This document shows positions 16,267 to 44,413 of a stretch of DNA of 64,000 nucleotides, piece by piece; within the stretch, counting starts at the first letter, position 1, and the number at the start of each line of letters is the position of its first letter. The notes beneath the pieces were generated by a model. That model made no database searches. It was given only the letters and a program-made list of their open reading frames with translations, and was not told where the DNA came from. The position numbers were made by a program, and so were the translations under genes. Source of the DNA: an uncultured Mesorhizobium sp. (GTDB lineage: Bacteria; Pseudomonadota; Alphaproteobacteria; Rhizobiales; Rhizobiaceae); contig CAZVTK010000002.1 in NCBI GenBank assembly GCA_964629765.1, positions 32,898 through 96,897 on the forward strand, in the 5' to 3' direction.

Positions 16267-16280
16267 ATCAGCATACGGAA
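16267..16280. promoter_or_regulatory. Putative MarR operator ATCAGCATACGGAA (autoregulatory site)
   Basis: Matches the recurring ATCAGTATACTGAT-like palindrome and lies directly upstream of marR. Confidence 0.65.
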
Positions 16281-16321
16281 TATCGACAAGGCTGCACGGT
16301 AAAAAACGCCGCAGGCAGCGC

Positions 16322-18310
16322 TCACCCCCCGGACGAACCGGCGTCGTCGCGGGCGAGCCGGGCGCCGAGCAAGACGCCTTCCTTCACCGCGAAGGACAGG
16401 CCGCGCGGCGCCAGGCAATCGCCGATCTGGATCGTCGGCAGGCCGGACGGCGGAACGGGTTCGCGCTCCAGCGGTCCGGCCCAGACGAGCCCGTCCGCCG
16501 CGAGCGGGATCGCCCTGCCTTCGCGGAAGCGGCACATGAGAACCCCGTCGGCCGTCTCGACGGCGGCGCGGACATGGATGGCGACGCCGGCCGCGCGCAG
16601 GCGGACGATGACGGCCTCGAAACTCTCCGGCGGAATGCGGCCCGCGACGCGCTCCTGCCGCGTGACCATCGCCACCTCGCAGCCGGCGGCGGCGGCGGCC
16701 TCCGCGGCGCTGACGGCATCCCATCGGCCGGTTTCGTCGACCACGACGACGCGACGCCACCCGGGCCGGCCTGCCGGATCGAGGAACCGCTCGGGGGAGA
16801 CGACCGGCAGGCCCGCGACGGCGCCGACCGCCGTGCGCGCGCCGGTCGCCGCAACGACCAGGCCGACCCCGTCCTCCCGCAGGACCGAGGCGTCCGGCGC
16901 GGCCTCCAGCCTGACGCGTATCCGGCCGCTGCGCGCGATGCGGCCTTCGAGATGGCGCACATAGTCGCGCCACGCCGCGCGGTGCGGCGCCATCCCGGCG
17001 ATGCGGCAGCGTCCGCCCAGCGCCGCCGAGCGCTCGTACAGGACGACATGCGCACCGGCCTTCGCGGCCGACAAAGCGGCCTCGCATCCAGCCGGGCCGC
17101 CGCCGACGACGCCGACGACGCCAGTGATCGGGGCGCGCCCGCTGATGTCCGTCTGCACGGCGGGAAGCGAGAGCGCGCCGGGGTTGACCTTGCAGGTGAC
17201 CCAGTTCTGACCGCGGTAGACGCGGCAATCCTCCATGCAGCGCAGGCAGGGGCGGATGTCGTCCGCCTTGCCGGCGGCCGCCTTGAGCACCCATTCGGGA
17301 TCGGCGAGCAGCGCCCGCCCGAGCCCCACCATGCTGGCGTCGCCGCTGGCAACCATGTCCTCCGCCAGCCCGGGCGTGCCGATGTTCTGGGTCGCCGTCA
17401 CGGGACAGCCGACCACGCGCAGGATGTTGCGGGTCGCCTCGCGGGTCCCGCCGGCCGGAAAGCTCGCGTCCTTCACGTAGCGATGCGGCGCGGAAGCCAC
17501 CGAAACCGTGATGTAGTCGATCAGGCGTTCCTGCCAGAGCGCGCCGCACAGCTCCAGTATCTCGCCCGCCTCCGGGCCTGCCTCGTCGCGGCCGCCCGAC
17601 GGCAGCCGGATGCCGATAAGGCGGCCGGGGTGATCGTCTCGCAGATCGCTCAGGATCTCGCGGTGCAGCCGCGAGCGGTTGCGCAGCGACCCGCCATACC
17701 CGTCGCCCCGGCTGTTGCGCGCGGGAGCCAGGAACTGGTTCAGCAGGTAGCCGTGCGCCGCATGCAGCTCGACGCCGTCGAAGCCGGCACGGATCACGTT
17801 GCGGGCGGAGGCGCGATGGGCATTGCGGAGCTCCGCGATATCGGCGAGGTCGAGCGCCGGGGCGAAGACCCCTTCGCGCCGGGACAACGCCGGCGACGGG
17901 CCGGCGACGGCGGCGTAGGGCGGCGCGAGACCCCATCGCTCCGCGCCGAAATGCAGGAGCTGGGCCACCACCAGCCCGCCATGCCCGTGCACCGCGTCGG
18001 CGACCGGGCCGAGCCGCGCCGCGAAGCCGGGATCGAAGATCGGCAGCAGGCCCCTGTCGTCCCGCCGCGTCGCGTGGAAGGAATGCTCCGCGACGACGGT
18101 GGCGCCGAGCACGATCAGGCCGAGCCCGTTTGCGGCGAGCTCGGCGAAGTTGCGCACGAGCTCGGGAACCGTGAGCGTCGCCTGCCCGTGCGGCAATGCG
18201 ACGGTGCGGTTGCGGGCAACGTGGCCGGCGGCGATCTCCAGCGGCCGGAACAGCGCGGGAAAGCCGCCTGCCTCCGGCTTTGCGGGCGCGGCCGCCGACC
18301 CGGGCGCCAT
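16322..18310 (-). CDS. NADH:flavin oxidoreductase (OYE barrel + 4Fe-4S + FAD domain; FadH/BaiH-like)
   Basis: GFDGVELHAAHGYLLNQF, DGYGGSL.NR, CLRCMEDC..C and GGGPAG motifs. Confidence 0.88.
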   Translation of the reverse strand: MAPGSAAAPAKPEAGGFPALFRPLEIAAGHVARNRTVALPHGQATLTVPELVRNFAELAANGLGLIVLGATVVAEHSFHATRRDDRGLLPIFDPGFAARLGPVADAVHGHGGLVVAQLLHFGAERWGLAPPYAAVAGPSPALSRREGVFAPALDLADIAELRNAHRASARNVIRAGFDGVELHAAHGYLLNQFLAPARNSRGDGYGGSLRNRSRLHREILSDLRDDHPGRLIGIRLPSGGRDEAGPEAGEILELCGALWQERLIDYITVSVASAPHRYVKDASFPAGGTREATRNILRVVGCPVTATQNIGTPGLAEDMVASGDASMVGLGRALLADPEWVLKAAAGKADDIRPCLRCMEDCRVYRGQNWVTCKVNPGALSLPAVQTDISGRAPITGVVGVVGGGPAGCEAALSAAKAGAHVVLYERSAALGGRCRIAGMAPHRAAWRDYVRHLEGRIARSGRIRVRLEAAPDASVLREDGVGLVVAATGARTAVGAVAGLPVVSPERFLDPAGRPGWRRVVVVDETGRWDAVSAAEAAAAAGCEVAMVTRQERVAGRIPPESFEAVIVRLRAAGVAIHVRAAVETADGVLMCRFREGRAIPLAADGLVWAGPLEREPVPPSGLPTIQIGDCLAPRGLSFAVKEGVLLGARLARDDAGSSGG

Positions 18311-18320
18311 CGTCCGGCGC

Positions 18321-18857
18321 CTAGACCGGCCTGGCCGTATAGCGGAAGAAGGTCAGCATCTCGACGCCGCAGAGCTCGCCGTCCGCTTCCTTCGTGTACG
18401 CCGTCTCCACCTTCATGAAGATGCCGTCGCCGATGGCGGTGGACTTGGGGGTGACGTCGCGCAGAACGGAGGTCGAGACGATGCGATCGCCGGGGTGGAC
18501 CGGTGCATGGTAGCGCGTGTCGACTGCCGTCACGACCACCCGGTCGCCCGGCCCCGGCACGACCTCGAAAATGGGCGGGCCGGGGACGAACGGGTCCAGG
18601 CTGAGCTCGCCCTGCGCGGGCCAGTAGGCGCGCGTCGAGAGCGGGCGCAGCATCGAGACGGGCGCGACAACGTCGGGATATCCTTCCCGACGGGCGGCCT
18701 CGGGGTCGAGATGGATCGGGAAGCCGACGCCCTGCACCTCCATCTTGCGGCGGAAGTCGGCCACCGAGGCGGCGTCGGCGCCGACGCGCGGGGGCAAGGG
18801 GCGGCCGATCCAGGCACGGGCATCGTCCACCGTTCCGGGAATGAGGTGCAGCGCCAT
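18321..18857 (-). CDS. MaoC/FAS1-like hot-dog dehydratase subunit (N-terminal type)
   Basis: YHAPVHPGDRI hot-dog signature and PDVVAP. SD GAGGAG. Confidence 0.75.
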   Translation of the reverse strand: MALHLIPGTVDDARAWIGRPLPPRVGADAASVADFRRKMEVQGVGFPIHLDPEAARREGYPDVVAPVSMLRPLSTRAYWPAQGELSLDPFVPGPPIFEVVPGPGDRVVVTAVDTRYHAPVHPGDRIVSTSVLRDVTPKSTAIGDGIFMKVETAYTKEADGELCGVEMLTFFRYTARPV

Positions 18858-18895
18858 GCTCGTCTCCTCGTCGCGCGATGATGTGCGAAGCGCCG

Positions 18896-19840
18896 TCAGC
18901 CGGCCTTTGCCGCCCGGGCCGATGCCGCAGCGGCCTCGGCGTCGATCAGGCCGATGTCCTGGAACGCCGACCGCATAACGTCGATCTCCGACGCGGGGGG
19001 CATGAGATAGGGGCGGCGGACGTCGCCGCCCGGATGGCTGAACACCTTGAGCGCCATCTTCACCCAGCGCGCGCTCGACGGGCTCCAGCGGCCGGACAGC
19101 TTGTAGAGGCGCAGGATGATGCCCATCTTGTGCGCCGCCCCGGCGATGTCGCCCGCCTCCGCGTCGCGGATGACGCCCATCAGCAGGTTAGGGCACACAT
19201 TGCCTTCGGCCGCCTGGCAGCCGTCGAGCCCCATCAATATGTCCTGCAACAGCGTCGCCGTGCCTGTGTAGACGGCCACGTCGTCCGGGATGCCGTCGCG
19301 GATCTGGAGGGCCGTCTCGCTTCCCGCGGCGATCACATGGACCGCGCGCACCTGGCTGAAGCCCTTGACGAGCTGGCTGATCAGCCTGGTCGAGGGCGAC
19401 CACGACGAGGCGACGCGGTGGATCGACAGGGCGATCGGGAAGTCGACGGCGCGCAGCACGTCCTCGTAATAGGCCACCTGCTCGTCGGGGCGCGGCCGCA
19501 TGCCGTGGCCGGCGTCCAGCGCGTACAGCTCGACGCAGTCGACGCCGACGTCGATCGCCATCTTCATCCATTCGATGACCTGCGCGGCCGTGCGCGGCTC
19601 GGGGGGATTGGCGTGCACGGGCACGCGGCCCTTCAGCACCTCCACGCCGATCTCGAACACGCGCCGCCGCTCGTCCTCGCTGAGGGCATAGCCCTCGCCC
19701 GAGCCGGGGCTGCCGAGATACACGCCCACGCCGGCATCGCGCAGGCGTCTCAAATGCGTGCGGAACCCCTCCTCGTCGAGCGATCCGTCCTCCCGGAAGG
19801 GGGTGGTGCTCATGGCGAACACGGTCTTCTTGCGCGACAA
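18896..19840 (-). CDS. Dihydrodipicolinate synthase/N-acetylneuraminate lyase fold protein with a non-canonical active site
   Basis: TTPFREDGSLD, GSGEGYALS..ER. His stands at the Schiff-base Lys position (VRAVHV). TTG start with SD. Confidence 0.82.
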   Translation of the reverse strand: MSRKKTVFAMSTTPFREDGSLDEEGFRTHLRRLRDAGVGVYLGSPGSGEGYALSEDERRRVFEIGVEVLKGRVPVHANPPEPRTAAQVIEWMKMAIDVGVDCVELYALDAGHGMRPRPDEQVAYYEDVLRAVDFPIALSIHRVASSWSPSTRLISQLVKGFSQVRAVHVIAAGSETALQIRDGIPDDVAVYTGTATLLQDILMGLDGCQAAEGNVCPNLLMGVIRDAEAGDIAGAAHKMGIILRLYKLSGRWSPSSARWVKMALKVFSHPGGDVRRPYLMPPASEIDVMRSAFQDIGLIDAEAAAASARAAKAG

Positions 19841-19843
19841 GGG

Positions 19844-20275
19844 CTACTCCTGCTTCGCTGTCGTATCGGTTGGAAATCTGACCTCGCACTCGCCTGTCGA
19901 CGTGACGCGGCCCGCGGCCTCGATGGTGATCGCGATGCGCGCCACCACGCCCCCGGCGTCGCGAACGGCCTCGACGATCGTGCCGGAGCAGGTGAGCGTC
20001 ATGCCCACCGCGTTGAAGCCGCCGAGCTTGAAGGCGATGCGCTCGATCCGCGCGGACGGGCCGGCCCAGGCGCGCAGGGTGAATTCGACGAGGGACTGAA
20101 GAAAGACGAAATTGGTGAACGGCCCCGGCGCTCCCGCCTTTCTCGCTTCGTCCACGTCATGGTGGATGGGCGCGAAATCGCGGTTCACGCCCGCTTCCAT
20201 CACCAGCCGCTGCAAGGAGAGCGGAACCACGCGCGGCGTGATGGCGGCGCCCGCCACGAGCTGCGGCCCGGTCAT
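19844..20275 (-). CDS. MaoC-like dehydratase subunit
   Basis: NRDFAPIHHD..EARKAG hydratase motif (D-x4-H). SD GGAGG. Confidence 0.85.
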   Translation of the reverse strand: MTGPQLVAGAAITPRVVPLSLQRLVMEAGVNRDFAPIHHDVDEARKAGAPGPFTNFVFLQSLVEFTLRAWAGPSARIERIAFKLGGFNAVGMTLTCSGTIVEAVRDAGGVVARIAITIEAAGRVTSTGECEVRFPTDTTAKQE

Positions 20276-20345
20276 CTCGCGGCCTCCGCCGCGCCGATGC
20301 CGGCACAGGGCGCCGGCGTCCCGTCATGTCGCTTTGCGGTCATGG

Positions 20346-20620
20346 CTAGAGCCTGTTATGGACTATGGATGGGGCTGCGCTGCCGCCGATTTTGGCCCGC
20401 CCGGCAGGAGCCGGTCGCAGACCGGTATCGGGAATACCTGCAAGACCGGCGACGAACCGGTGGGCCAAAAGCGGCGCAGCCCGAAGGGTTGAGCGGCGAA
20501 GGCCGCCTGATGCGTCGAAAGGCTTGCCGGTATGCCCGATACCGGCCTGCGCCTTTCTCCTGTCATGCGGTCCTTCGTCGCTCAACGCAGCCTCCATCCA
20601 GGGTCCATAACAGGCTCTAG
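20346..20620. mobile_element. MITE-like non-autonomous element 1 (275 bp including both CTAG)
   Basis: Perfect 18-bp inverted ends CTAGAGCCTGTTATGGAC (20346-20363 / 20603-20620), extending imperfectly to about 35 bp. No credible ORF. The right CTAG coincides with the CoA-transferase stop codon. Confidence 0.82.
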
Positions 20621-21795
20621 CGCGACCGGCCGGCGAGCTTCGCCAGCACTTCCCCGGTGTGCTGGCCCAGCACCGGCGGCGCGGAGAAGGTTTCCGCGCT
20701 GCCGGTCTTGATCGGGTTGCCGACCATCTTCTGCACGGTCCCGTCGGCGTTCTCGACCTCGACGATCATGTTGCGGCGGGCCACCGTGGGGAAGGCGAAC
20801 GCCTCGTCGATGGTCTGGACCAGCGCGACGGGCACGCCCTCCTTCTGGAAGGCGGCGACCCAGTGGGCAGAATCCTTCGCCAGAAAGGCCTCGGCGACCA
20901 CCGCTTCCAGCTCCCTGGCGTGCTTGCGCCGCTCCGGAACGGTCTTGAAGCGGGGATCCTCCGCAAGGTCGGCCCGGCCGATCGCGTTCATGTAGCCGAC
21001 CCACCAGCGCGGCAGCACGCTGGGCGTCGCATAGACGTACCGGCCGTCGGCGCATTCGTAGGCGCGGCTGGGCGGCATGTTGGCGAGCCGCGTGCCGACG
21101 CGCGAATAGACGATGCCGTGGGTGAAATAGTCCTGCGCCTGCCAGATGAGCAGGCTGAGCTGCGCATCGAGGATCGACACCTCGACGAAGCGGCCCTTGC
21201 CGTCGCGCTGGCGTCCCTGAAGGCCGGCGAGGATCGCCACGGCCGCCCACAGGCCGCCGGCGGTATCGCCGATCTGGTAGCCCACGCGGGCAGGGGGGCC
21301 GTCGGGATCGCCGGTGATGCTCATCACGCCGGACACCGCCTGGACCAGCGAGTCCGTGGCCGGGAAGTTGCCGTACTCACCCTCGCTGTCGAAGCCGCAG
21401 ACCGAGCAGACCACCAGCCCGGGGTTCATGGCGTGCAGGGTGGCGAAGTCGAAGCCGAGCCGGTCGACAACGCCCGACTTGAAATTGTGGCAGAAGACGT
21501 CGGCCTCCTTGAGAAGCTGCATCAACGCTTCCTTGCCCGCGTCCTCCTTGAGGTCGAGCACGATGCCTTTCTTGTTGCGGTTCACGCTGTAGTAGAAGGT
21601 GCTGTTGCCCTCCGAGATGAAGGGCGGGATCAGCCGCGTCGGATCGCCCGACGGAGGCTCCACCTTGATCACTTCCGCGCCGAGGTCGCCGAGGATCATC
21701 GTGGCGAACGGGCCGGAGATGAAATGCGATATGTCCACGATCTTCAGTCCGCGCAGCGGCGGCTCGAGCTTTTCACCGGGGAAGGACGTCGTCAT
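20617..21795 (-). CDS. Class III CoA transferase (CaiB/BaiF)
   Basis: GPFATMILGDLGAEVIKVEPP.GD, NRNKK and the catalytic Asp in IGDTAGG. Start at 21795 or 21813. Confidence 0.93.
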   Translation of the reverse strand: MTTSFPGEKLEPPLRGLKIVDISHFISGPFATMILGDLGAEVIKVEPPSGDPTRLIPPFISEGNSTFYYSVNRNKKGIVLDLKEDAGKEALMQLLKEADVFCHNFKSGVVDRLGFDFATLHAMNPGLVVCSVCGFDSEGEYGNFPATDSLVQAVSGVMSITGDPDGPPARVGYQIGDTAGGLWAAVAILAGLQGRQRDGKGRFVEVSILDAQLSLLIWQAQDYFTHGIVYSRVGTRLANMPPSRAYECADGRYVYATPSVLPRWWVGYMNAIGRADLAEDPRFKTVPERRKHARELEAVVAEAFLAKDSAHWVAAFQKEGVPVALVQTIDEAFAFPTVARRNMIVEVENADGTVQKMVGNPIKTGSAETFSAPPVLGQHTGEVLAKLAGRSR

Positions 21796-21809
21796 CGGGT
21801 GTCCACTTC

Positions 21810-22520
21810 TCATTTCTTCTGTCGGGCGTCGGGATCGCCGATGCGGCGGTTGCCCGTGAGCCGATCGGAGGCCCAGCGCACCTGAGCGGCGATCTCGCCG
21901 GGGGCGCGGGGCAAGGTGTCGAGCACGCCCTGCTTGACGAGTTGCAGGCAGGCCGGGTCGTGCCCGGCTATCCGCGCCGCCCAGCCCCGGGCGAACGGCA
22001 GCACCTCGGCCGGGGGCAGCACGCGGTTGAGGAAGCCGGCGCGGTGGAGCTCCGCCGCCGACACCTCGTCGGCGAGCAGCAGGTATTCCATCGCCAGCTT
22101 GTGGGGCACGCGCGCGGCGAGCGCCGAGGCGACGCCTTTCGAGAATCCGATCCTGACCTCCGGATAGCAGAAGCGGGCGTCCTCCGCGGCCACCGCGAGG
22201 TCGACCTGCTGGAGCAGGATCATTCCGCCGGCGACGCACCAGCCTTCGACGGCGGCGATGATGGGCTTGGCGGTGCGCACGCCCAGATTGGGCGCCCAGC
22301 GGGAGCCGCTCTGCGGCGGATCCTTCAGGTCGACGCCGGAGCTGAAATTGCCGCCGGCGCCGCTGAGCACGGCAACGACGTCGTCGCCCTCCTCGAAGCG
22401 CCTCCATGCGGCTTCCAGATCGGCGGCCATCTGCTCGTTGATGGCATTCTTCCTCTCGGGACGGTTGAGCGTGATCGAAGCCACCCCGTCCTTCGAGGCA
22501 TACAGCACGGTGCCGGTCAT
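21810..22520 (-). CDS. Enoyl-CoA hydratase/isomerase family protein
   Basis: LNRPERKNAI, FSSGVDL, KPIIAAVEG and YPE (single catalytic Glu). Confidence 0.9.
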   Translation of the reverse strand: MTGTVLYASKDGVASITLNRPERKNAINEQMAADLEAAWRRFEEGDDVVAVLSGAGGNFSSGVDLKDPPQSGSRWAPNLGVRTAKPIIAAVEGWCVAGGMILLQQVDLAVAAEDARFCYPEVRIGFSKGVASALAARVPHKLAMEYLLLADEVSAAELHRAGFLNRVLPPAEVLPFARGWAARIAGHDPACLQLVKQGVLDTLPRAPGEIAAQVRWASDRLTGNRRIGDPDARQKK

Positions 22521-22621
22521 CTTCCTCCCCTGTCCGAGCCTGCGAAGCATGGACATCCTACACGGCTCCCCGGTCCGTGTCGGACGCCCTCGATTGCCGC
22601 TCGTTGTTGTCTATGCATATG

Positions 22622-22637
22622 TTCCGTATACTGTCAA
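22622..22637 (-). promoter_or_regulatory. Putative MarR operator TTCCGTATACTGTC overlapping a minus-strand TTGACA
   Basis: Palindrome variant. tgtcaa at 22632-22637 reads TTGACA on the minus strand, upstream of the ECH operon. Confidence 0.65.
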
Positions 22638-22673
22638 TCTGGCGCGCGGCCTGCCGGCCCGAACCGCCGCCGG

Positions 22674-23900
22674 CTATGCGGATGCCCTCCTCGGCACCGC
22701 TTCCGCCGCCGGCATCTCGATGCCCGACAGCCCGGAGCCGCCGTAGAGCCAAGCCAGGATATCGTACCATTCGGCGGCGGACTTGGCCTGCATGATCTCG
22801 TTGCGCAGCGCCGCATGCACGCCGGACGGATGGTAGATGTGGTCGCCGATCGCCCTCGACTGGAGCTGGACGCGCGCCGTGCGCAACGTCCTCGCCGTCT
22901 GATAGCGCAGCATCGCGGTTTCGACGTCGTCCGAATGCTGGAGCAGATGCGTCAGCGCGACCGCGTCCTCCATGGCCATGCAGGCGCCCTGCGCGAAATA
23001 CTGCATCATGGGATGGGCCGCGTCCCCCAGCAGCGCCACGCGGCCGTCGACCCATCTGGCGATCGGTTCCCGGTCGCACAGGACCCATTTGCGCCAGTTC
23101 GATCCGTGCTGGATGATCGACCGGGCCGTCGCGCAGGTGTCGCGAAAGCCCTCATGCACCTCGTCGTGATGCACCGGAGCACCGGCCACGGGCTCCGGCG
23201 CGTGGTTATGGTAGGTCACCACCAGATTGAACGAGCTCCAGTCCGACAACGGATAGTGCACGATATGGCATTTGGGGCCGGCCCACAGCGTCGCCGCGTT
23301 CCAGCGCAGATCTTCCGGCATGTCCTCGACGGCGATGACGGAGCGGTAGGTGGTGTGGCCGGAAACCCGCGGCGGCCCGTCTGCGGCGAGCTGGCTCCTG
23401 ACGTTCGACCAGAGGCCGTCGGCGCCGACCAGCGCGCTTCCGCGCAACCGCTCGCCATCGGCCAGGGTCGCCGTCACCGACGCGCCGTCCTGGTCGTAGC
23501 GCGCCACTTCCGCGCTGGTCCGGATATCGACGAGGCTCGATTCGCGGCAGCGGCGCAGCAGGATGGAGTGGAGCTCGCCGCGATGCACGACCGCATAGGG
23601 ATTGCCGAACCGCTGGCGGAACGCATCCTCCAGCGGAATGCGGATGATCTCGTCGCCGCTCAACGCGTCCATCAGGCGCAGGCTGTCGATGAAGATGGCG
23701 TGCCGCTTCGCCTCCTGCGCGATGCCGAGAAAGTCGAAGGAGTGGAATGCGTTAGGGCCGAGCTGGATGCCCGCGCCGATCTCGCCGAGCGTGGGCGCCC
23801 TTTCCAGCACGAGCACGCGCATGCCGCGCTCCGCCAGCCCGAGCGCCAGCGACAGGCCGCCGATTCCGGCTCCGGCGATCAAAATTGGCAAGGACGTCAT
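22674..23900 (-). CDS. 3-hydroxybenzoate 6-monooxygenase-like FAD monooxygenase
   Basis: GAGIGG, EIGAGIQLGPN, GADG, LGDAAHPMMQYFAQGACMAMEDA; adjacent to gentisate genes. Confidence 0.88.
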   Translation of the reverse strand: MTSLPILIAGAGIGGLSLALGLAERGMRVLVLERAPTLGEIGAGIQLGPNAFHSFDFLGIAQEAKRHAIFIDSLRLMDALSGDEIIRIPLEDAFRQRFGNPYAVVHRGELHSILLRRCRESSLVDIRTSAEVARYDQDGASVTATLADGERLRGSALVGADGLWSNVRSQLAADGPPRVSGHTTYRSVIAVEDMPEDLRWNAATLWAGPKCHIVHYPLSDWSSFNLVVTYHNHAPEPVAGAPVHHDEVHEGFRDTCATARSIIQHGSNWRKWVLCDREPIARWVDGRVALLGDAAHPMMQYFAQGACMAMEDAVALTHLLQHSDDVETAMLRYQTARTLRTARVQLQSRAIGDHIYHPSGVHAALRNEIMQAKSAAEWYDILAWLYGGSGLSGIEMPAAEAVPRRASA

Positions 23901-23950
23901 CAGCTTCTCCAATCGCGACGCCCGGCGCCGCAATCCTGCGTATTCATTAA

Positions 23951-23964
23951 ATCAGTATGCTGTG
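23951..23964. promoter_or_regulatory. Putative MarR operator ATCAGTATGCTGTG
   Basis: In an AT-rich intergenic patch upstream of the hydroxylase. Confidence 0.65.
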
Positions 23965-24004
23965 TTGTTGGCATCGATCATGGCGCATCCCTTCAGAACC
24001 GGCC

Positions 24005-25699: not shown

Positions 25700-25715
25700 G
25701 TCCCGCCTCCGCCGG

Positions 25716-27072: not shown

Positions 27073-27077
27073 GGCGG

Positions 27078-34446: not shown

Positions 34447-34493
34447 ACTCCTCCCGAATGCAGGCTCGTATCGATGTCGAGCTATTTGATGCT

Positions 34494-34518
34494 ATTCTGA
34501 TAATCAGCATACTGTCAA
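34494..34518 (-). promoter_or_regulatory. Promoter/operator ATTCTGATAATCAGCATACTGTCAA (MarR site 34503-34516; minus-strand TTGACA..TAGCAT)
   Basis: Read directly; near-identical in layout to 38508-38532. Confidence 0.7.
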
Positions 34519-34567
34519 GTTTGCATCGAGCCTTCGCGGCCTTGCCCGGCCGGCCGGGCAACGCCGC

Positions 34568-36721: not shown

Positions 36722-38385
36722 CCCGCCTTGCCTTCCCTAGCCACTTTCGCGATTTCGGCGCGATCCACGAGCTTGACGCGCGGACGGCGGGACGATCTGC
36801 CTCCGGCGCGCTCGTGCCGGTCGATCGCACGCCATTCCCCGATGCCGCCGCTGCGCGCGATCGCCGACGCGAGCCTGTCCGGGATGCCGGCGGGAGCGGG
36901 CAGCCGGCCGCTCCGCATGTCGGCAAGGAGCGCGGCAACCGCCTCCTGCGCGCATGTCCTGTTGCTCCCCATCGAGCCGCTCGGCCCCCGCCTTATCCAT
37001 CCCGTCACATAGGTGCCCGCGGCCGGCTCTCCGCCTGCGGAATCGGCGACCCGCCCGTCCGTATTCGGGACCGTGCCGCGGCGCGGATCGAAGGGAAGCC
37101 CGGCGATGGGCGTCCCCCTATTGCCGACCGAGCGCAGGACCATCCCGGCATCCAGCACGTCTTCCTCGTCCGTTGCCGTCGCAAGGATCTCTCCGTCGGC
37201 GGCGTGGTCGAGACGGTTCCTGACGAAGCGGACGCCGGTCACGCTGCCCTCTCCCAGGATCTCGACGGGAGAGCGCTGGAAAAGCAGTTTCAGGACACGT
37301 CCGCCCGCCGGATGCCGGCTCGCCAGCCGGCCCAGCGCCTCCAGCCTGCGCGCGCCCGCCCAGTGCTCCGCGAACCCGTCCAAACCCGCCGCCTCCGGCA
37401 TCTCCACCTGAACCGCGAAACCGCGCGATTTGGCGAGGCCGAGCAGCTCCGGCAGGGTGAAGGCCGCCTGCGCCGGGCCGCGCCGGCCGACCACCGACAC
37501 TTCCCTGATGCGGCTTTCGGCGAGCGCCGCGAGCGCGTGGTCGGCGATGTCCGTGCGCCTGAGCGCGTCGATGTCCGAGAGAAGGATTCGCGCCACGTCG
37601 AGGGCCACGTTGCCGTTGCCGAGGACGACGGCGCGTTCCGTATCGAGATCGAAGCGACGATCCGCGAAGTCGGGATGGCCGTTGTACCAGGCGGCGAACT
37701 CGGCCGCCGACCAGCTTCCGCGCAGATCCTCGCCCGGAATGCCGAGCCGCCTGTCGCCCGCGGCCCCGGTGGCATAGATCACCGCATGATAGGCCCGGCG
37801 CAGGTCGAGATGGCCGATGTCGCGGCCGACCTCGACGCCCAGCACCAGCCTGAAACGCGGATCGTCGGCGGTGCGCTCGAATATTGCGGTGATTCCCCTG
37901 GTCCCGGCGTGGTCCGGCGCCACGCCGAAGCGCGCCAGCCCCCACGGAACCGGCAGGCGCTCGAACATGTCGACCGCGACGTCGAGGCCCGGCGTGCCCA
38001 AAAGCGCCTCGGCGGCATAGGCGCCGGCGGGACCCGACCCGACGATCGCGACACGCAAGGCGCCGTCGCGCGCCATCCGGCGGTCGTCGAGCCGCCGCGG
38101 CGCGCGGCGAGGCACGTATCGCGGCGCCGCGCCGTCGCGGAAGAAGCTGGCATTCAAATCGATGAACGCGCGGTCGGCGCCCATCAGGTCATAGTCCGGC
38201 AGGATCGCCCCGACGGGGCAGACATCCGCGCAGGCCCCGCAGTCTATGCAGACATCCGGGTCGATGTAGAGCATGTCCGCACCCATGTAGCCGGCGTCCG
38301 ACGGGGTGGGATGGATGCAGTTGACCGGGCAGACCGGCACGCAGGATGCGTCGTTGCAGCAGGGCTGTGTGACGACGTGGGGCAT
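36718..38385 (-). CDS. fprB: Ferredoxin-fused ferredoxin-NADP reductase (FprB-like)
   Basis: PHVVTQPCCNDASC..CPVNCIHP..CIDCGAC..CP, then GSGPAG, GL.RFGVAPDH, GNGNVALDVAR and GWIRRGP.G. Confidence 0.85.
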   Translation of the reverse strand: MPHVVTQPCCNDASCVPVCPVNCIHPTPSDAGYMGADMLYIDPDVCIDCGACADVCPVGAILPDYDLMGADRAFIDLNASFFRDGAAPRYVPRRAPRRLDDRRMARDGALRVAIVGSGPAGAYAAEALLGTPGLDVAVDMFERLPVPWGLARFGVAPDHAGTRGITAIFERTADDPRFRLVLGVEVGRDIGHLDLRRAYHAVIYATGAAGDRRLGIPGEDLRGSWSAAEFAAWYNGHPDFADRRFDLDTERAVVLGNGNVALDVARILLSDIDALRRTDIADHALAALAESRIREVSVVGRRGPAQAAFTLPELLGLAKSRGFAVQVEMPEAAGLDGFAEHWAGARRLEALGRLASRHPAGGRVLKLLFQRSPVEILGEGSVTGVRFVRNRLDHAADGEILATATDEEDVLDAGMVLRSVGNRGTPIAGLPFDPRRGTVPNTDGRVADSAGGEPAAGTYVTGWIRRGPSGSMGSNRTCAQEAVAALLADMRSGRLPAPAGIPDRLASAIARSGGIGEWRAIDRHERAGGRSSRRPRVKLVDRAEIAKVAREGKAG

Positions 38386-38507
38386 GCACACCTCATCCAG
38401 CGCGATCGCGGTACGGCGTCGTTCGAGGCAGACTGCGGCGCCCGCGCATGCCGGCCGTTCCCGACGAAAGGCGCTCGTCCAGCCGCTCCTCGCAGAAGTC
38501 CAACATT

Positions 38508-38587
38508 ATTCTGATTATCAGTATGCGGTCAATATGATCCGCCGCCTGCCGGCAGTTTGACAGCATGCACTTTATCAGTATACGGAG
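38508..38587. promoter_or_regulatory. Divergent promoter region with MarR-type sites ATCAGTATGCGGTC (38517-38530) and ATCAGTATACGGAG (38574-38587)
   Basis: Minus-strand TTGACC at 38527-38532 and plus-strand TTGACA at 38557-38562; AT-rich. Confidence 0.7.
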
Positions 38588-38634: not shown

Positions 38635-40071
38635 TTGCCGACCGGGGAGCTCGACGCGCACATCATCGTCGTCGGCGGCGGGCTCGCCGGACTGACGAGC
38701 GCCGTCGCCGCGAGCGAGCGGGGCGCGCGCGTGATCGTCCTCGAACAGGGCGTGGGCGAGCGCTACCCGTGCAATTCCCGCTACGCGCTCGGCTGGCTGC
38801 ACCTCAACTATCACGATGTCGGCATGCAACCCGACGCGCTGGCCGAATCGCTGCTGCGCGGCGTGCCGGACGACCGCGACCGGGCCCTGATCGAAGTCAT
38901 CGCATACAATACGGGCAGGGCCGTCAGGTGGCTGAAGCGCGCAGGCGAGGCGCGTTTCATCCGCATCGGCCCGGCGCCCTACGAGAAGTGGGTCATGGCG
39001 CCGCCGCGGCCGCCGCGGCCCGGGCTGGTCTGGCCGGGAAGCGGGCCGGACAGGGTGCTGCGCCGTCTGGCGCGCCGCATGGCCGAGTTCGGGTCGCCCG
39101 TCCGCTCCGGGCACCGTGTCAGCGACATCCGCGCCGAGGGCGGCGGCTTCGTGGTGGAGGTCGAGCGCGAAGGCCGCGCGGAACGGCTGCGGGCGTCGGC
39201 GGTGGTGCTTGCGGACGGCGGCTTTCAGGCGGACAGGGCCGCGCTTGCCAGGCACGTCACCTCCACGCCGGAACGCGTGCTCCAACGCAATGCCGGCACG
39301 GGCGTCGGACTGTCGCTCGGGCTTGCCGCGTCGCTCGGCGCGGCGGTGTCCGAGCTCGGCAACTTCTATGGCCACCTGGTGTCGCGGGACGCGCTGGAGC
39401 GAGCCGACCTGTGGCCCTATCCGATGATCGACGGCCTCGCGAATGCCGGCATCGTCGTCGGTCCCGACGGCCGCCGCTTCGTCGATGAAGGGCAGACCGG
39501 CGTCTACATAGCCAACCGGATCGCCCGGCGGCCTGATCCTCTCGACGCCACGGTGGTGGTGGACGACGCGACCTGGCGCAGCGTGGGCCGCGCCCACAAG
39601 ATCCCGCCCAACCCGCTGCTGCGCACGCATGGCGGCACCATCCACACGGTGGGCTCGCTCGCCGAAGGCGCGAAGCTGGCGGGGATCGACGCGGATGCGC
39701 TTGCCGGGACCGTGGCGGCGTTCAACGGCGCGCTGGCGGCCGACGGGCTCGGCGCCCTCGACCCCGTGCGCAGCGTGAAGCGCGGCCCGCCGCGGGAGAT
39801 CGCCGCCGCGCCCTTCCATTTCATCCCCGTATGCGCCGGCGTCACCTATACGATGGGCGGCGTGCGGATCGACGGCAACGCCCGGGTCGTATCGGAGAGC
39901 GGAGCGCCGATCCCCGGCCTGTTCGCCGCGGGAGCGGCAGTCGGCGGGATCGAGGGCGGCGAGTGGAGCTTCTACATGGGGGGCCTGTGCCGCGCGCTCG
40001 TTCTGGGCCTGATCTCGGGCGAGAGCGCGGTGGCGGCGACCCACGGCGCCGCACTGGCCGTCGAGGCATAG
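38635..40071 (+). CDS. FAD_binding_2 flavoprotein (TcuA/fumarate reductase flavoprotein-like)
   Basis: GGGLAG, LADGGF, FYGH, GVTYTMGGVRID, GLFAAG..GG. TTG start with SD GGAGG. Confidence 0.87.
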   Translation: MPTGELDAHIIVVGGGLAGLTSAVAASERGARVIVLEQGVGERYPCNSRYALGWLHLNYHDVGMQPDALAESLLRGVPDDRDRALIEVIAYNTGRAVRWLKRAGEARFIRIGPAPYEKWVMAPPRPPRPGLVWPGSGPDRVLRRLARRMAEFGSPVRSGHRVSDIRAEGGGFVVEVEREGRAERLRASAVVLADGGFQADRAALARHVTSTPERVLQRNAGTGVGLSLGLAASLGAAVSELGNFYGHLVSRDALERADLWPYPMIDGLANAGIVVGPDGRRFVDEGQTGVYIANRIARRPDPLDATVVVDDATWRSVGRAHKIPPNPLLRTHGGTIHTVGSLAEGAKLAGIDADALAGTVAAFNGALAADGLGALDPVRSVKRGPPREIAAAPFHFIPVCAGVTYTMGGVRIDGNARVVSESGAPIPGLFAAGAAVGGIEGGEWSFYMGGLCRALVLGLISGESAVAATHGAALAVEA

Positions 40072-40131
40072 ATCGAGGGAACAACCGGGCGGCACGGGCG
40101 ACATCGCCGCGCAGCCGCATGTGAGGGAACC

Positions 40132-40377
40132 ATGGCGATCGACGACCACAATCCGGCCGGAGCATATCCGACCCTGATGTTCCTGCTGCGCTTCCGCGCC
40201 GCGGTTCTCCTCGTGGCGACGCTGCTTCCCGTAGCAGCCGGCGCGGCGCTCTACGCTTCCGGCGCGGGCGTCGGCTGGGCGCCGGGCGGGCTGCTGTGCG
40301 CCGCCCTCGTCCATCTCGTCGCGCGTGCCGGGCTCGAGGTCCTGGCGCTGATCACGGATCTGCTGATACCACGCTAG
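40132..40377 (+). CDS. Small hypothetical membrane protein (81 aa)
   Basis: Hydrophobic segments, SD GAGGGA, in-operon spacing. Confidence 0.65.
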   Translation: MAIDDHNPAGAYPTLMFLLRFRAAVLLVATLLPVAAGAALYASGAGVGWAPGGLLCAALVHLVARAGLEVLALITDLLIPR

Positions 40378-40392
40378 ACCGGTCGGCAGGGC

Positions 40393-41472
40393 ATGAAGCA
40401 GGTTGCGGCATCGGGCGCAGACGGTTCTCGCGGACGCGGCGGGCCGGCGGCCCTGACTTTTCCATTTCCCCAACCGCCCGGGCCGGGGGAGGTGCGCGAG
40501 GTTGCCAAGGGACTTCTGTGGGCGCGGATTCCGCTGCCGTTCCGCCTCGACCACGTCAACGTCTATCTCGTCGCCGACGACGGCGGCTGGACCATCGTCG
40601 ACACCGGCGTTTCCCACGATCTGGCGCGCGCCGCCTGGCTGGCGCTGCTGGAAGGCCCGCTGCGCGGCGAGCGCTTCACCAGGCTGATCGCCACGCATGC
40701 CCACCCCGACCACATCGGCCTTGCCGGATGGCTGTGCGAACGCCTGCGCGTGCCGCTGCTCGCAAGCCGGACCTGCTATCTCGACGCCACGCGCATGGCG
40801 CTGAACCCCGCGCTGTACGAGTCGCAGTCCCACCGCGACTTCTACAGGCGGCACGGGATGGGACCGGAAGGGGTGGCGCACGTCGCCCGGCGCGGCTACG
40901 CCTATGTGAAGCTGGTGACGCCGCTGCCGACCACCTACGACCGGCTGGCCGCGAGAGACGTGCTGACGATCGGCGATCGCCGTTTCGAGGTGCTTTCGGG
41001 CGACGGCCATGCCGCCGAGCAGATCATGCTCCATTCATCGACGGAGCGCATCCTGCTCGCCGCCGACCAGGTGCTGGCGCGGATCTCGCCCAATATCGGC
41101 GTCTGGGCCACCGAGCCCCAAGGCGATCCGCTCGGCCTCTATTTGCGCTCGCTCACCGCACTGGAACGCGACCTGCCGCCGGACACGCTCGTGCTCGCGG
41201 GGCACCAGCTCCCCTTCATCGGCCTGCACCGGCGATGCCGCGAGCTCGCCGACGCGCACGAAGCGCGCTGCCGCCTCATCGTGGAGAGCTGCCAGGGCGC
41301 GCCGCGAACGGTCGCCGAGCTGGTGCCGATCCTGTTCGGAGACGGCCTCGACATCCAGCAGCAGGGCTTTGCCTTCAGCGAGACGCTGGCTCACGCCAAC
41401 AGGCTGATCCGCCGCGGCGACGCGGCATGGCTGCCGCAGGACGGGCTGAGCCGGCTCGCCGCCAAGGCGTAG
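40393..41472 (+). CDS. MBL-fold metallo-hydrolase
   Basis: LDHVNVYL, VDTG, THAHPDHIG, GH, D.VL...SPN, LAGH. Confidence 0.9.
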   Translation: MKQVAASGADGSRGRGGPAALTFPFPQPPGPGEVREVAKGLLWARIPLPFRLDHVNVYLVADDGGWTIVDTGVSHDLARAAWLALLEGPLRGERFTRLIATHAHPDHIGLAGWLCERLRVPLLASRTCYLDATRMALNPALYESQSHRDFYRRHGMGPEGVAHVARRGYAYVKLVTPLPTTYDRLAARDVLTIGDRRFEVLSGDGHAAEQIMLHSSTERILLAADQVLARISPNIGVWATEPQGDPLGLYLRSLTALERDLPPDTLVLAGHQLPFIGLHRRCRELADAHEARCRLIVESCQGAPRTVAELVPILFGDGLDIQQQGFAFSETLAHANRLIRRGDAAWLPQDGLSRLAAKA

Positions 41473-41524: not shown

Positions 41525-42613
41525 TCAGCCCGCCGCGAACGCCTTGATCCAGGGCTCGAAGTCCTTGTCGTAGGAGTTCTCCCACCGATTGAAATCGACG
41601 TCGTAGACCTCGGCGATCGGCCGGAACCACGGCTCCCTGGTGAAGGACCGCTGGTCGGGAACGCCGTCTACCATCGTGGCCGAGCCGAGCGATTGCTGAA
41701 GCGCGGGCGCTGCTTCCTTGCTGGTCAGCCAGTTCAGGAACAGCCGCGCCGCGTTGCCGTGCGGCGCGTAGGCGGAAACCGCAAAGAACTGGTTCGGGTA
41801 GGACGGCGTCGGCCTAGGGTAGAGGAACCGGACCGGAGCGCCGGTTTCAAGCAGCGAGCTGGCGCGGCCATCCCAGCTCCAGAAGGTGAAATCGTGCTCG
41901 CCGGCCACCACGCGGTCGATCGGCACGAGCAGGTCGTTGTACACCGCCGGCTGCTGCGCGGCGACCTTCTGGAAGAAGTCCGGCGGGAACGCGCCGGAAC
42001 TGCTCATGAGCTGCACGCCGGCATAGATCGCCCCGCTCTTCTGTGTCGTGACGGCGAAACGGCCCTTGAAGCGCGGGTCGATGACATTCTGCCAGCCGGC
42101 CTCGAGCAGGCGCACCTCTTCCTCGCTCAGCCTCGCCTGATTGTAGATCAGGCACAGCGTCAGCCGGAACGGCGAGTAGGCGTGGCTGCCCAGCCGCGCG
42201 TCGGCCGGAAGCTGGTCGTAGGTGGGGATCCGCCACTCCGCCAGGTGCCCGTCGGCGATCAGCGACGTCACCATCGGCCTGTCCGAGATGTTGACGATGT
42301 CGGCGGCGTGCTGGCCGGCGGCGACCTCTTCCATGAACCGCTGGTACTGCTGCGGCCCGACGAAGCGCGCGATCTCGACGGAGATGCCGGGATAGGCGCG
42401 CTCGAAGTCGCGCGCGGCCGCCTGCGAGACGTCCAGCGCGTTCGTCGTGTACCAGAGGAACTTGCCTTCGGCGCGCGCGGCCTTTTCCAGCTCGGCCGCG
42501 TCCGGGGGACTGGCCGCCGACTGCGCGAGGGACGCGCCGGTCCCGCCGCCGAACAAAGCCAGTGCCGATGCCGTCTTCATGAAGGAGCGGCGATTGGTGA
42601 CGTATTTATCCAT
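41525..42613 (-). CDS. ABC transporter substrate-binding protein (FbpA/PotD-like), Tat signal
   Basis: NRRSFMK signal, AEGKFLWYT, DPRFKGR. Paralog of 48989..50068. Confidence 0.88.
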   Translation of the reverse strand: MDKYVTNRRSFMKTASALALFGGGTGASLAQSAASPPDAAELEKAARAEGKFLWYTTNALDVSQAAARDFERAYPGISVEIARFVGPQQYQRFMEEVAAGQHAADIVNISDRPMVTSLIADGHLAEWRIPTYDQLPADARLGSHAYSPFRLTLCLIYNQARLSEEEVRLLEAGWQNVIDPRFKGRFAVTTQKSGAIYAGVQLMSSSGAFPPDFFQKVAAQQPAVYNDLLVPIDRVVAGEHDFTFWSWDGRASSLLETGAPVRFLYPRPTPSYPNQFFAVSAYAPHGNAARLFLNWLTSKEAAPALQQSLGSATMVDGVPDQRSFTREPWFRPIAEVYDVDFNRWENSYDKDFEPWIKAFAAG

Positions 42614-42689
42614 GTCTTCCTCCCAGATAGCGGCCGCGGATTTTTCCGGGGCCCGGCCGGCGGCCCCGCAGCACTGTCGCGACCGGTCG

Positions 42690-44366
42690 CTACAGATATT
42701 CGCTCAGGAACGACGCCATGACCGAAGCATTGATCTTGCAGTCGATCAGGATCTGCGCACCCGCCGGGTTGCCGAGCACCGGGGCGAGGGCGTGCAGGTC
42801 GGCTATCGTGCGCACGGTGGCGACGTGGAAGCCGAACGCCTCGGCGACGCTCGCGAAGTCCACGTCGGGGAACAGCGCCTTGGCCACCGGCAGGTTGCGC
42901 GCCTTGAGCAGGTGGAGCTCCGCGCCATAGGCGCAGTCGTTCATCACCACGATCGTCAGGGGGATGTTCTCGCGCGCGGCCGTCTCCAGCTCCCCGAGGG
43001 TCATGAGGAAGGAGCCGTCGCCGAGGAACAGGGCCGTCGGCCGTTGCGGGCGCGCCAGCGCGTGGCCGAGCGCCACGCCGAAGCCCATCCCGATCGAGGC
43101 GAAGTCGCTGGTGATCTTGAAGGCGTCGGGACCGGGAACGTCGACATAGGCCAGCGCGGCGAAGAAGTTGCCCGTGTCGGTGACGACGTTGCGGTCCTGC
43201 GGGAAGATGCGGTCGAACTCCACTGCCAGGCTTCGCGGGTCGAGCGTGCGCTCCGTGTTGGCCGGAACGAATTCGGTCGATCTGTCGAAGGTGGCCAGCA
43301 ACTGCCGGTTCCCGTCGCTCCTGAACGGTTTCTCGTCGTCGCCGCGTGCCGGCAGCAGCTCGACCAGCCGGTCGCTCACCGTCACGGCGTCACCGGCGAT
43401 CGCGACGTCGGCCGAGGACCAGCGATTGACGTGGGTCCTGTCGATGTCGACATGGATGATCGGGGCGCCGGCGGGCAGCGCCGCGCCGAAGCTCATCGTG
43501 AACCTGTTCATGCTGGCGCCGAAGATCACCACGCAGTCCGCCTGATCGATGAGCCGCCGGCCCGCGGCGTGGGAGAACGATCCGACGATGCCGGCATCGA
43601 ACGGGTTGCCGCGAAAGAAGCCCCGCGCCCGCAGCGTGGTGGCGACCACGGCGCCGACATGTTCGGCGAGCCGGTCGAGCGACGCGCGCGCGCCGGCGCG
43701 ATGGGCGCCGAGGCCGGCCAGGATCAGCGGCCTGCGGCTGCGCGCCAGCAGCGAGGCCGCCGTCTCGAGAGCGGCCGGGCGCGGCTGCGCGCGAGGTGGC
43801 TGCGCCTGGGCGCGCGGCCGCTGTTCGATGGGCAGCGCACCCTGCTGCTGGACATCCACGGGGAGCAGCAGCGCAGCGGCATGACCGCGCTCGGCATGGG
43901 CGAGCGCGTCCAGCAGCGTGCCCACCGCCGTCTCGGCGCTGGCCGCCGTGAACGGCCGCAGCCCCGCGCCCGCGAGCACGGCCGTCGCGTCGAACGCCTT
44001 GTTGTCGGGACCGAGCCCCCTGTTGAGGATGCCGGCCGGCGGCGCCTCGCCGTAGATGACCAGCACCTTCGAGCCCGTGCGGCTGGCATAGGCGGCGCCA
44101 TGAAGCGCATTCGCCGCCGCCGGACCGCGTCCCACGATGGCGATCGCCACCTTTCCCGAAGCCGACGCATAGCCTTCGGCCATGGCGATGGCGGTGCTCT
44201 CATGCCGGGCCGCGCAGAAGCGAACGCCGATCGCGTCCAGCGTCGCGACCAGCGCGGCCGTGTCGTCGCTCATCAGCCCGAAGACGACGTCGATGCCCTC
44301 GCGCCTGATCTGCTCGGCGAGGAGCTGGTAGACCGGGACCGTCGCGCTCCCCAAACCATCCGCCAC
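42690..44366 (-). CDS. Thiamine pyrophosphate-binding protein (acetolactate synthase/decarboxylase-like)
   Basis: RHE catalytic Glu and GDGSF..VMND TPP motif. GTG start after SD GGGAGG. Confidence 0.9.
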   Translation of the reverse strand: MADGLGSATVPVYQLLAEQIRREGIDVVFGLMSDDTAALVATLDAIGVRFCAARHESTAIAMAEGYASASGKVAIAIVGRGPAAANALHGAAYASRTGSKVLVIYGEAPPAGILNRGLGPDNKAFDATAVLAGAGLRPFTAASAETAVGTLLDALAHAERGHAAALLLPVDVQQQGALPIEQRPRAQAQPPRAQPRPAALETAASLLARSRRPLILAGLGAHRAGARASLDRLAEHVGAVVATTLRARGFFRGNPFDAGIVGSFSHAAGRRLIDQADCVVIFGASMNRFTMSFGAALPAGAPIIHVDIDRTHVNRWSSADVAIAGDAVTVSDRLVELLPARGDDEKPFRSDGNRQLLATFDRSTEFVPANTERTLDPRSLAVEFDRIFPQDRNVVTDTGNFFAALAYVDVPGPDAFKITSDFASIGMGFGVALGHALARPQRPTALFLGDGSFLMTLGELETAARENIPLTIVVMNDCAYGAELHLLKARNLPVAKALFPDVDFASVAEAFGFHVATVRTIADLHALAPVLGNPAGAQILIDCKINASVMASFLSEYL

Positions 44367-44399
44367 GGCAATCCCTCCCATCAAGACAGAATGCATATA

Positions 44400-44413
44400 T
44401 TCCGTATACGTTA
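44400..44413. promoter_or_regulatory. Putative MarR operator variant TTCCGTATACGTTA
   Basis: Shares TGCATAT..TTCCGTATAC with the 22.6-kb site; upstream of the TPP gene. Confidence 0.5.

Follow-up and report, generated by a model that had tools for sequence, protein, structure and literature searches.

PcaV from Streptomyces coelicolor (PDB: 4fht and 4g9y), the MarR repressor of the protocatechuate pca operon, binds the operator TCAGxxxxCTGA and is released by protocatechuate, 3-hydroxybenzoate (3-HB) and related acids (PMC3616709). In its pocket, Arg15 in helix 1 acts as carboxylate clamp and gatekeeper, His21 reads the meta-hydroxyl and His9 reads the 4-hydroxyl (PMC3616709). MobR from Comamonas testosteroni KH122-3s, the repressor of mobA, has 3-HB as its effector (Yoshida et al. 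2007, as cited in PMC3616709), and NagR2 from Polaromonas naphthalenivorans CJ2 appears in a passage of PMC10146988 as the MarR-type negative regulator of nagR2-orf2-I''KL. Here we describe a 64-kb stretch of DNA from an uncultured Mesorhizobium sp. (contig CAZVTK010000002.1, 68.5% G+C; hereafter the window) that encodes a single MarR protein, g13, and carries a repeated palindromic motif with the core CMG-YATR-CKG. The motif is probably the operator of this MarR (15796–16227), which would belong to a PcaV/MobR-like subfamily of hydroxybenzoate-sensing repressors, widespread in Proteobacteria, and command a regulon of eight promoters.

The MarR protein g13 compared with known repressors

Genes were called by third-position G+C (GC3), giving 55 genes that were annotated with Pfam and NCBIfam. 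One recognisable transcription factor was found among them:

15796–16227, minus strand: g13, marR, 143 aa from ATG 16227, PcaV/MobR-like MarR protein

ATG 16227 agrees with the 143 aa of the database protein, an exact match (entry P0001), and with a predicted −10 that ends at about 16253, and was taken as the start; an in-frame GTG at 16251 was rejected on the same grounds. The protein matched the Pfam MarR family (PF01047, 52.3 bits against a cut-off of 24.6) and 61 MarR proteins in the PDB. Its best match among solved structures is PcaV (4fht, E 3e-17, 31% identity), in agreement with the resemblance proposed in the preliminary description of this DNA, and the PcaV motifs PGHLxRR, QY and DRSTI are kept. 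The recognition helix DRSTIxxV, common to PcaV, is invariant in the g13 subfamily. PcaV residues Leu6, Gly11, His12, Arg15, His21, Ser35, Tyr38 and Ala39 are identical in g13; His9 is replaced by Met, Trp25 by Phe, Asn114 by Gln, and both Ile110 and Met113 by Val. Some homologs carry the JGI label "lower aerobic nicotinate degradation pathway regulator", which we took as automatic, as BpsR (6pcp) falls far behind PcaV among the PDB matches and nicotinate genes are absent.

For comparison we used 80 loci, each encoding a MarR homolog 49–64% identical to g13, from species-representative genomes of Acetobacteraceae, Roseomonas, Bosea, Labrys, Azospirillum, Xanthobacter and some Burkholderiales.

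The preliminary description had noted that PcaV-type repressors bind TCAG-N4-CTGA and sense hydroxybenzoates, which the published work bears out (PMC3616709). The consensus TCMG-YATR-CKGA, found in the window and upstream of homologs, matches the PcaV arms and 4-bp spacing in silico, and g13 shares with PcaV this operator logic, the use of two operators and (predicted) autoregulation. The two systems differ in layout, since the two PcaV operators are separate 20-bp sites in one intergenic region of one locus, whereas here fixed 15-bp tandems stand at eight promoters. They differ also in pathway (protocatechuate for PcaV, gentisate for the window), and the two proteins share only 31% identity.

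MobR is the closest characterised relative that was compared directly (41% identity over 133 residues, E 1e-34; MobR sequence taken from the ROSALIND supplement). It controls a single gene. A MobA-type hydroxylase lies behind the motif in at least seven of the 80 loci, and the one gene checked, in locus L008, is an ortholog of MobA (3-HB 4-hydroxylase) behind a pair of sites. The MarR beside it is only 36% identical to MobR, so the g13 lineage is a subfamily separate from MobR.

NagR2 is likened to g13 by its gene company, which as described in PMC10146988 takes in the four types found here (3-HB 6-hydroxylase, gentisate dioxygenase, fumarylpyruvate hydrolase and maleylpyruvate isomerase). Many loci of the 80-locus set are arranged in this way, with a hydroxylase (32 loci), dioxygenase (31), isomerase (19) or hydrolase (14) adjoining the MarR homolog. 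In the window, all four gentisate-cluster gene types are present and each carries or follows operators, but marR lies 6.4 kb from the 3-HB 6-monooxygenase gene g20 and the regulon is several times larger. MhbR from Burkholderia xenovorans LB400 was dropped as a model, its predicted MarR box, ATTGTTTCACAAACTAAT (PMC3572157), being unrelated to the motif. A full-text literature search with the core strings and MarR returned unrelated papers only.

The sites and their enrichment

Seven 14-mers had been quoted in the preliminary description and idealised as ATCAG-YATR-CTGAT. All seven occur verbatim, at 16267, 22622, 23951, 34503, 38517, 38574 and 44400, but none fits the idealised form exactly; five lie within three mismatches of it (two or three each), and 22622 and 44400 have more than three. 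The conserved part is the palindromic core CMG-YATR-CKG, exact in six of the seven sites and one mismatch away at 44400. This core occurs seven times in the whole window against 1.47 expected, a count reached by 0 of 100 shuffles, and six times in the 4437 intergenic bases against 0.10 expected (dinucleotide-preserving shuffles). The seventh exact match, at 33925, lies inside the binding-protein gene g31. When sites were scored in bits with an 18-bp matrix built only from sites in other genomes, the intergenic bases held seven matches of at least 14 bits against 0.014 expected. The sites are confirmed as real and non-random. Eight promoters carry them:

16267–16280: marR operator dyad ATCAGCATACGGAA, 23.5 bits, centre 46 nt from the ATG
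22622–22635: g19 operator dyad, minus strand TTGACAGTATACGGAA-N-TAGACA, overlapping the −35, 25.4 bits
23951–23964: g20 operator dyad, 18.1 bits, centre 57 nt from ATG 23900
28928–28956: g25 weak tandem pair, 7.1 + 8.2 bits, exactly 15 bp apart, laid out as at the strong promoters
34488–34516: g31 tandem operator, 28.0 + 5.5 bits
38502–38530: g33 tandem operator, minus strand TTGACCGCATACTGATAATCAGAATAATGT, 26.0 + 12.3 bits, 15 bp apart
38559–38587: g34 tandem operator on the divergent promoter, 14.0 + 26.7 bits, 15 bp apart
44385–44413: g38 operator, primary dyad 44400–44413 at 16.2 bits, faint secondary dyad 44385–44398 at 4.6 bits

The sites were thus graded as strong at g19, g31, g33 and g34 (25–28 bits), good at marR and g20, moderate at g38 and weak at g25, the gentisate operon, whose pair is the weakest of all. 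What had been taken for a half-site at 28933 is a weak tandem pair (28928–28941 and 28943–28956). All seven quoted sites lie in gaps between genes and upstream of operon starts, as had been claimed, except that 16267 precedes marR only and not the genes for the old yellow enzyme (OYE) and dihydrodipicolinate synthase (DHDPS) family proteins; from this site autoregulation of marR is predicted. The distance from site to start codon is 46–72 nt, and 132 nt for g33, if g20 starts at ATG 23900.

The motif follows the MarR lineage in other genomes

Among the 80 loci, TCMGYATRCKGA (at most one mismatch) occurs 5.6 times per 10 kb in the 500 bp before marR and about 0.3 times per 10 kb elsewhere. An unseeded count of 8-mers upstream of the marR homologs returned pieces of the motif as its top words: CCGTATAC 43 times, AATCAGTA 157 times and ATTGACAG 28 times. 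With the matrix, 69 of the 80 loci yielded 130 sites that scored 14 bits or more, and 36 loci have such a site within 350 bp upstream of marR. Applied back to the window, this matrix of foreign sites ranked the seven quoted sites as matches 1–7 of the whole window (16.2–28.0 bits), and the next-ranking matches were their partners at exactly −15 bp. As a control, 1.04 Mb from 62 loci collected for the molybdenum (Mo) enzyme gave only two matches that reached 12 bits, both at 13 bits, and none of 14 bits or more. That the motif belongs to the g13 MarR lineage is well supported in silico by these comparisons.

We considered whether the motif could be bound by another regulator encoded outside the window, with the proximity of marR a coincidence. 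Only 64 kb of the genome is visible, and the window also holds a second palindrome, ATGGWTSAWCCAT, that is clearly the site of a regulator encoded elsewhere. The motif studied here, however, tracks MarR homologs in Acetobacteraceae, Bosea, Labrys, Azospirillum, Xanthobacter and Comamonadaceae whatever their neighbours, matches the PcaV half-site and spacing, and is absent from the 62 control loci, which makes an outside regulator very improbable.

Elsewhere, the first gene behind a site is mostly one for a gentisate-dioxygenase-type cupin (23 cases), an FAD hydroxylase (16, seven of them MobA-like) or a glutathione S-transferase (GST) isomerase (10), or marR itself (36 loci). Genes of the class II aldolase/adducin family, with 18 cases, rank second among the first targets in the 80-locus set. 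In Bosea (L033, L037–L039, L041–L043, L049 and L065), the strongest site, GTCCGTATACTGAT with its partner at a distance of 15 bp, lies about 200–370 bp upstream of marR and precedes a gene with a class II aldolase/adducin domain.

Tandem dyads lie over promoter elements

The typical layout in other genomes is TTGA-CAGCATACTG-ACATT-CAGCATACTG-TCAA, that is, two dyads whose starts lie 15 bp apart, with a TTGACA box facing outward on either side. Of 50 secondary sites there, 43 stand at exactly ±15 bp. The same spacing is observed in the window, where the best neighbour score of every primary site falls exactly 15 bp to its left (14.0, 12.3, 7.1, 5.5, 4.6, 0.2, −4.9 and −9.2 bits). Adjacent offsets score about −17 to −48 bits, with one exception of −4.2 at 23949. 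This second dyad accounts for the conserved TATTCTGAT/TATGCATAT stretch beside the quoted 14-mers.

The dyads sit on promoters of the sigma-70 type, TTGACA-N18-TAnnnn. On minus-strand promoters the primary dyad begins inside the −35 (TTGA-CAG...) and the secondary covers the −10. The order is reversed at the plus-strand g34 promoter, where the secondary dyad overlaps the −35 (TTGACAGCATGC) and the primary covers the −10 region. At g31, the primary dyad (34503–34516) overlaps the −35 TTGACA and the secondary (34488–34501) covers the −10; the TTGACA-18-TAGCAT found there was the only promoter-like match in a consensus scan of 15500–35000. At marR, TTGTCG (−35-like) and GATAGC (−10-like) flank the dyad on the minus strand. 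The earlier remark that several sites overlap TTGAC holds: CTGTCAA or CGGTCAA closes the sites at 22622, 34503 and 38517, and 38574 has TTGACAGCATGC as its partner dyad.

From dyads lying on both the −35 and the −10 we infer repression by occlusion. Each promoter would offer a strong dyad, (T)CMG-YATR-CKG(A), and a weaker one exactly 15 bp away; the pair would cover the −35, with TTGACAG serving as both −35 and half-site, as well as the spacer and −10, and bound MarR dimers would block RNA polymerase.

Genes under the predicted operators

The minus strand dominates from 38.4 kb down to 15.8 kb. The transcription units other than marR that contain or follow the sites are:

16322–22556, minus strand: g19–g14, enoyl-CoA hydratase (ECH), family III CoA-transferase, MaoC-like protein, DHDPS-family protein, hotdog dehydratase and OYE/FadH-like flavoenzyme (Pfam and NCBIfam)
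22674–23900, minus strand: g20, 3-HB 6-monooxygenase (NCBIfam NF006021, 555.6 bits against a cut-off of 459)
24005–28880, minus strand: operon g25–g21, short-chain dehydrogenase/reductase (SDR), gentisate-1,2-dioxygenase-like cupin, fumarylpyruvate-hydrolase-type fumarylacetoacetate hydrolase (FAH) family protein, maleylpyruvate/maleylacetoacetate isomerase (GST) and KstD-like FAD enzyme (Pfam and NCBIfam)
28990–34446, minus strand: operon g31–g26, NMT1/SsuA-type binding protein with a twin-arginine translocation (TAT) signal, ferredoxin, CYP105-like P450, ferredoxin reductase, ATP-binding cassette (ABC) ATPase and permease (Pfam; PDB matches of the P450 are CYP105-type)
34568–38391, minus strand: operon g33–g32, a ferredoxin domain fused to a flavoprotein like the small subunit of glutamate synthase (g33) and a cytoplasmic Mo/W-bis-pyranopterin guanine dinucleotide (bisPGD) oxidoreductase (g32) (Pfam and NCBIfam)
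38635–41472, plus strand: operon g34–g36, divergent from g33, TcuA/fumarate-reductase-like FAD enzyme, 81-aa membrane-like protein and metallo-beta-lactamase-fold hydrolase (Pfam and NCBIfam)
41525–44354, minus strand: operon g38–g37, thiamine diphosphate (ThDP) enzyme of the acetolactate-synthase superfamily and solute-binding protein (Pfam)

The start of g20 is probably ATG 23900, behind GGAG, in place of TTG 23933. Like the 3-HB 6-monooxygenase, the maiA-type isomerase scores above its NCBIfam cut-off; the dioxygenase-like cupin, at 271.7 bits, stays under the cut-off of 442 set for gentisate 1,2-dioxygenase, and the match of the FAH-family hydrolase is generic. The PDB relatives of g32 are distant only (FdhF and acetylene hydratase), and the best PDB match of the ThDP enzyme is BbmA only. 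As read from the sequence, a start-codon correction within 42557–42613 is likely for g37, which probably starts near 42613, behind GGGAGGA; this adds a TAT-like signal peptide.

Just left of marR lies a convergent plus-strand group:

10178–15772, plus strand: g8–g12, thiolase-like protein, ChsH2-type DUF35/OB-fold protein fused to an SDR, putative cyclase, acyl-CoA ligase and SDR

No MarR-type site was found upstream of this group in the matrix scan, and it therefore appears to be outside the regulon.

How far the predicted regulon reaches

Several observations weigh against the assignment of these units to g13, or limit it. The training sites of the matrix were chosen with a pattern derived from the window, which makes their core in part circular; independent evidence for the assignment comes from the positional enrichment and from the 8-mer test. 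The MobR operator mobO (ROSALIND supplement) is unlike the window motif. The window was found in four metagenome DNA runs only, and no RNA run containing it was found. The position of PcaV His21 is Ser in 30 of 38 family members, and effector specificity within the subfamily may accordingly vary.

Three of the predicted targets are also affected. The gentisate operon, the expected core target, has weak sites only (7–8 bits). At g38 the −35 is poor, and the unrelated second motif occurs in the same region. The OYE/DHDPS genes, which had been proposed as a co-controlled operon, have no operator of their own: only g19 in the g19–g14 string is preceded by one, and the gap between g17 and g18 (20276–20616) holds no matrix match above 5 bits. 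These genes could be reached only by read-through from the g19 promoter, across a 277-bp insertion resembling a miniature inverted-repeat transposable element (MITE).

The co-regulation proposed in the preliminary description is thus largely borne out. The preliminary description went further and placed the gentisate genes and all the other named operons in one funnel pathway. This is not established and is doubtful for some members; any metabolic unity among the operons we can only infer. An alternative that we regard as a serious possibility, at somewhat less than even chances, is that the operons are co-regulated by MarR without forming one pathway. The regulon would then be a mosaic of a conserved core (3-HB hydroxylase and gentisate genes) and modules that gained an operator-bearing promoter in this lineage only and serve independent peripheral routes or unrelated functions.

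Evidence from the Mo-enzyme operon points in this direction. Its closest relative found, in locus L122 (g33 63% and g32 73% identity), has its own divergent regulator and no MarR-type site, which suggests that rewiring in the lineage of the window brought the Mo operon under MarR. In that locus the operon (2272–4685) adjoins a divergent 290-aa open reading frame (1354–2226, minus strand) that reads like a helix-turn-helix regulator. We rejected the Mo operon as a conserved member of the regulon after the metagenome scan, given this relative without a site and the lack of any match of at least 14 bits in the 62 loci. The P450 operon has a strong site at g31, yet no homolog of the P450 or of the Mo enzyme occurs within 10 kb of the MarR homologs in any of the 80 loci. 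The best relatives of the P450 (53%) lie on plasmids in an unrelated AraC/SDR context; this context favours the mosaic but is in itself uninformative. In addition, near-identical pairs of promoters (34503 with 38517, and 22622 with 44400) look as if a promoter cassette had been copied.

Other genes argue the opposite, as they recur with MarR and the motif. A KstD-like gene directly follows marR in Azospirillum and one other locus. Azospirillum also has an operon of a small protein, a TcuA-like protein and OYE behind a 20.6-bit site; the small protein is homologous to g35, so that the g34–g35 pairing is kept behind a motif site. In locus L021, an operator pair precedes an operon in which a homolog of the ThDP enzyme (58%) is joined with gentisate dioxygenase (GDO) and fumarylpyruvate hydrolase (the GDO-FPH-TPP operon). 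The tight co-directional packing over 22 kb in the window likewise suggests selection for joint expression. Taken together, the regulon looks like a conserved hydroxybenzoate/gentisate core joined by a recurrent flavoenzyme module and lineage-specific recruits.

The flavoenzymes also occur apart from the gentisate genes. Loci L063/L064 (Azospirillum brasilense, about 6350–16430), L061, L077 and L040 have the same MarR subfamily and operator and no gentisate genes within 10 kb. Besides a GFO/IDH/MocA oxidoreductase and a KstD-like flavoprotein, the Azospirillum/Xanthobacter set has the small membrane protein together with OYE and a TcuA-like flavoprotein, an SDR accompanied by a LIV-type ABC transporter, and a 3-hydroxyacyl-CoA-dehydrogenase-like gene. 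It looks like a conserved, uncharacterised module.

If the operons do share a purpose, the operator could mark an undescribed upstream route to 3-HB, for example a meta-hydroxy counterpart of the cyclohexanecarboxylate aromatisation (chc) pathway, although we consider this unlikely. In such a route, the CYP105-like P450 with its ferredoxin and reductase would hydroxylate an imported alicyclic or substituted acid, the SDR would oxidise the product, and the two KstD/TcuA-like flavoproteins (with OYE) would desaturate it to 3-HB, which would enter the gentisate pathway; the Mo/W-bisPGD and ThDP enzymes would act on further substrates. The NCBIfam desaturase models of the chc pathway matched g21 at 425 bits (ChcC2) and 300 bits (ChcC1), both far below cut-off, and g25 also matched ChcB2. 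Given the set of P450, ferredoxin and reductase, these scores would fit the aromatisation of an alicyclic acid to 3-HB.

The likely effector and induction

The best candidate for the effector is a free acid that carries a meta-hydroxyl, namely 3-HB or gentisate. The preliminary description had offered these two, a reasonable guess in view of the 3-HB 6-monooxygenase gene that neighbours the MarR homolog in 32 of the 80 loci, the 41% identity to MobR and the retention of residues for the carboxylate and the meta-hydroxyl. The acid would enter the pocket at the dimer interface and be clamped by the arginine equivalent to PcaV Arg15, the winged helices would turn, and the DNA would be released. 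Between 16 and 44 kb, release would switch on marR together with seven further transcription units: the ECH/CoA-transferase unit (OYE/DHDPS probably by read-through), the 3-HB 6-monooxygenase, the SDR-gentisate operon, and the P450/ABC, Mo-enzyme, TcuA-like flavoprotein and ThDP-enzyme operons.

The presence of a family III CoA-transferase, an enoyl-CoA hydratase and hotdog dehydratases in the regulon raises the question of whether the effector is instead a CoA thioester, 3-hydroxybenzoyl-CoA or gentisyl-CoA. CouR is among the PDB matches of g13 (6c28, E 1.5e-8) and is reportedly a precedent, a MarR protein responding to p-coumaroyl-CoA. The free-acid binders PcaV and MobR are nevertheless much closer to g13 than CouR, g13 keeps the Arg that clamps the carboxylate along with most of the buried pocket of PcaV, and the regulon in most other genomes consists of hydroxylase and gentisate genes with no CoA enzymes. 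A thioester effector is therefore quite unlikely, and free 3-HB and/or gentisate is the most likely signal for g13.

A second motif and MITE-like elements

The second palindromic motif, ATGGWTSAWCCAT, is unrelated to the MarR motif and has seven matches in the window, all intergenic, against 1.99 expected:

44502–44514, 45842–45854, 48818–48830, 48945–48957, 56730–56742, 57764–57776 and 61154–61166: ATGGWTSAWCCAT sites

Its sites mark out a further putative regulon, in the window's right half, with genes for CoA-transferases, an aromatic-ring hydroxylase, a second gentisate-dioxygenase-like cupin, ABC and major facilitator superfamily transporters, and ECH, SDR and acyl-CoA dehydrogenase proteins. 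The TGGT...ACCA arms of the motif look GntR/FadR-like; no regulator for it is encoded among the 55 genes. The upstream region of g38 holds both motifs, the ATGGWTSAWCCAT site at 44502 lying 100 bp upstream of the g38 operator.

Two MITE-like elements of about 277–279 bp with 28-nt terminal inverted repeats (93% and 96% complementary) were also noted:

20345–20621: first element, inside the g19–g14 string, overlapping the g18 stop codon
55261–55539: second element

Matrix matches at 55265 and 55518 (11.2 bits) were rejected as operators because they are the terminal inverted repeats of the second element, which mimic the site.

Significance of the predicted operator and regulon

Control of an aromatic-acid pathway by a MarR repressor through a PcaV-type operator is of a known kind, and no new regulatory principle is involved. 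What is new is the operator consensus with its fixed 15-bp tandem for this MarR subfamily, of which we found no description in the searchable literature, and the breadth of the local regulon, which is unusual, with eight promoters and about 25 genes over 28 kb.

The consensus and architecture, two TCAG-YATR-CTGA dyads 15 bp apart on −35/−10 elements, can be tested for the subfamily, which occurs in at least 593 stretches of species-representative genomes, mostly from Alphaproteobacteria. They would let aromatic-acid regulons be read from sequence in many uncultured organisms and provide candidate sensor and operator parts for 3-HB or gentisate biosensors. If the chc-like route is real, the recurrence of KstD-like, TcuA-like, OYE and SDR genes in Azospirillum and Xanthobacter would represent a conserved, uncharacterised catabolic module. 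For the window itself, the operators would tie about 25 genes to hydroxybenzoate metabolism, including the Mo/W enzyme, the P450 system, the ThDP enzyme and several flavoenzymes, and would narrow the search for their substrates.

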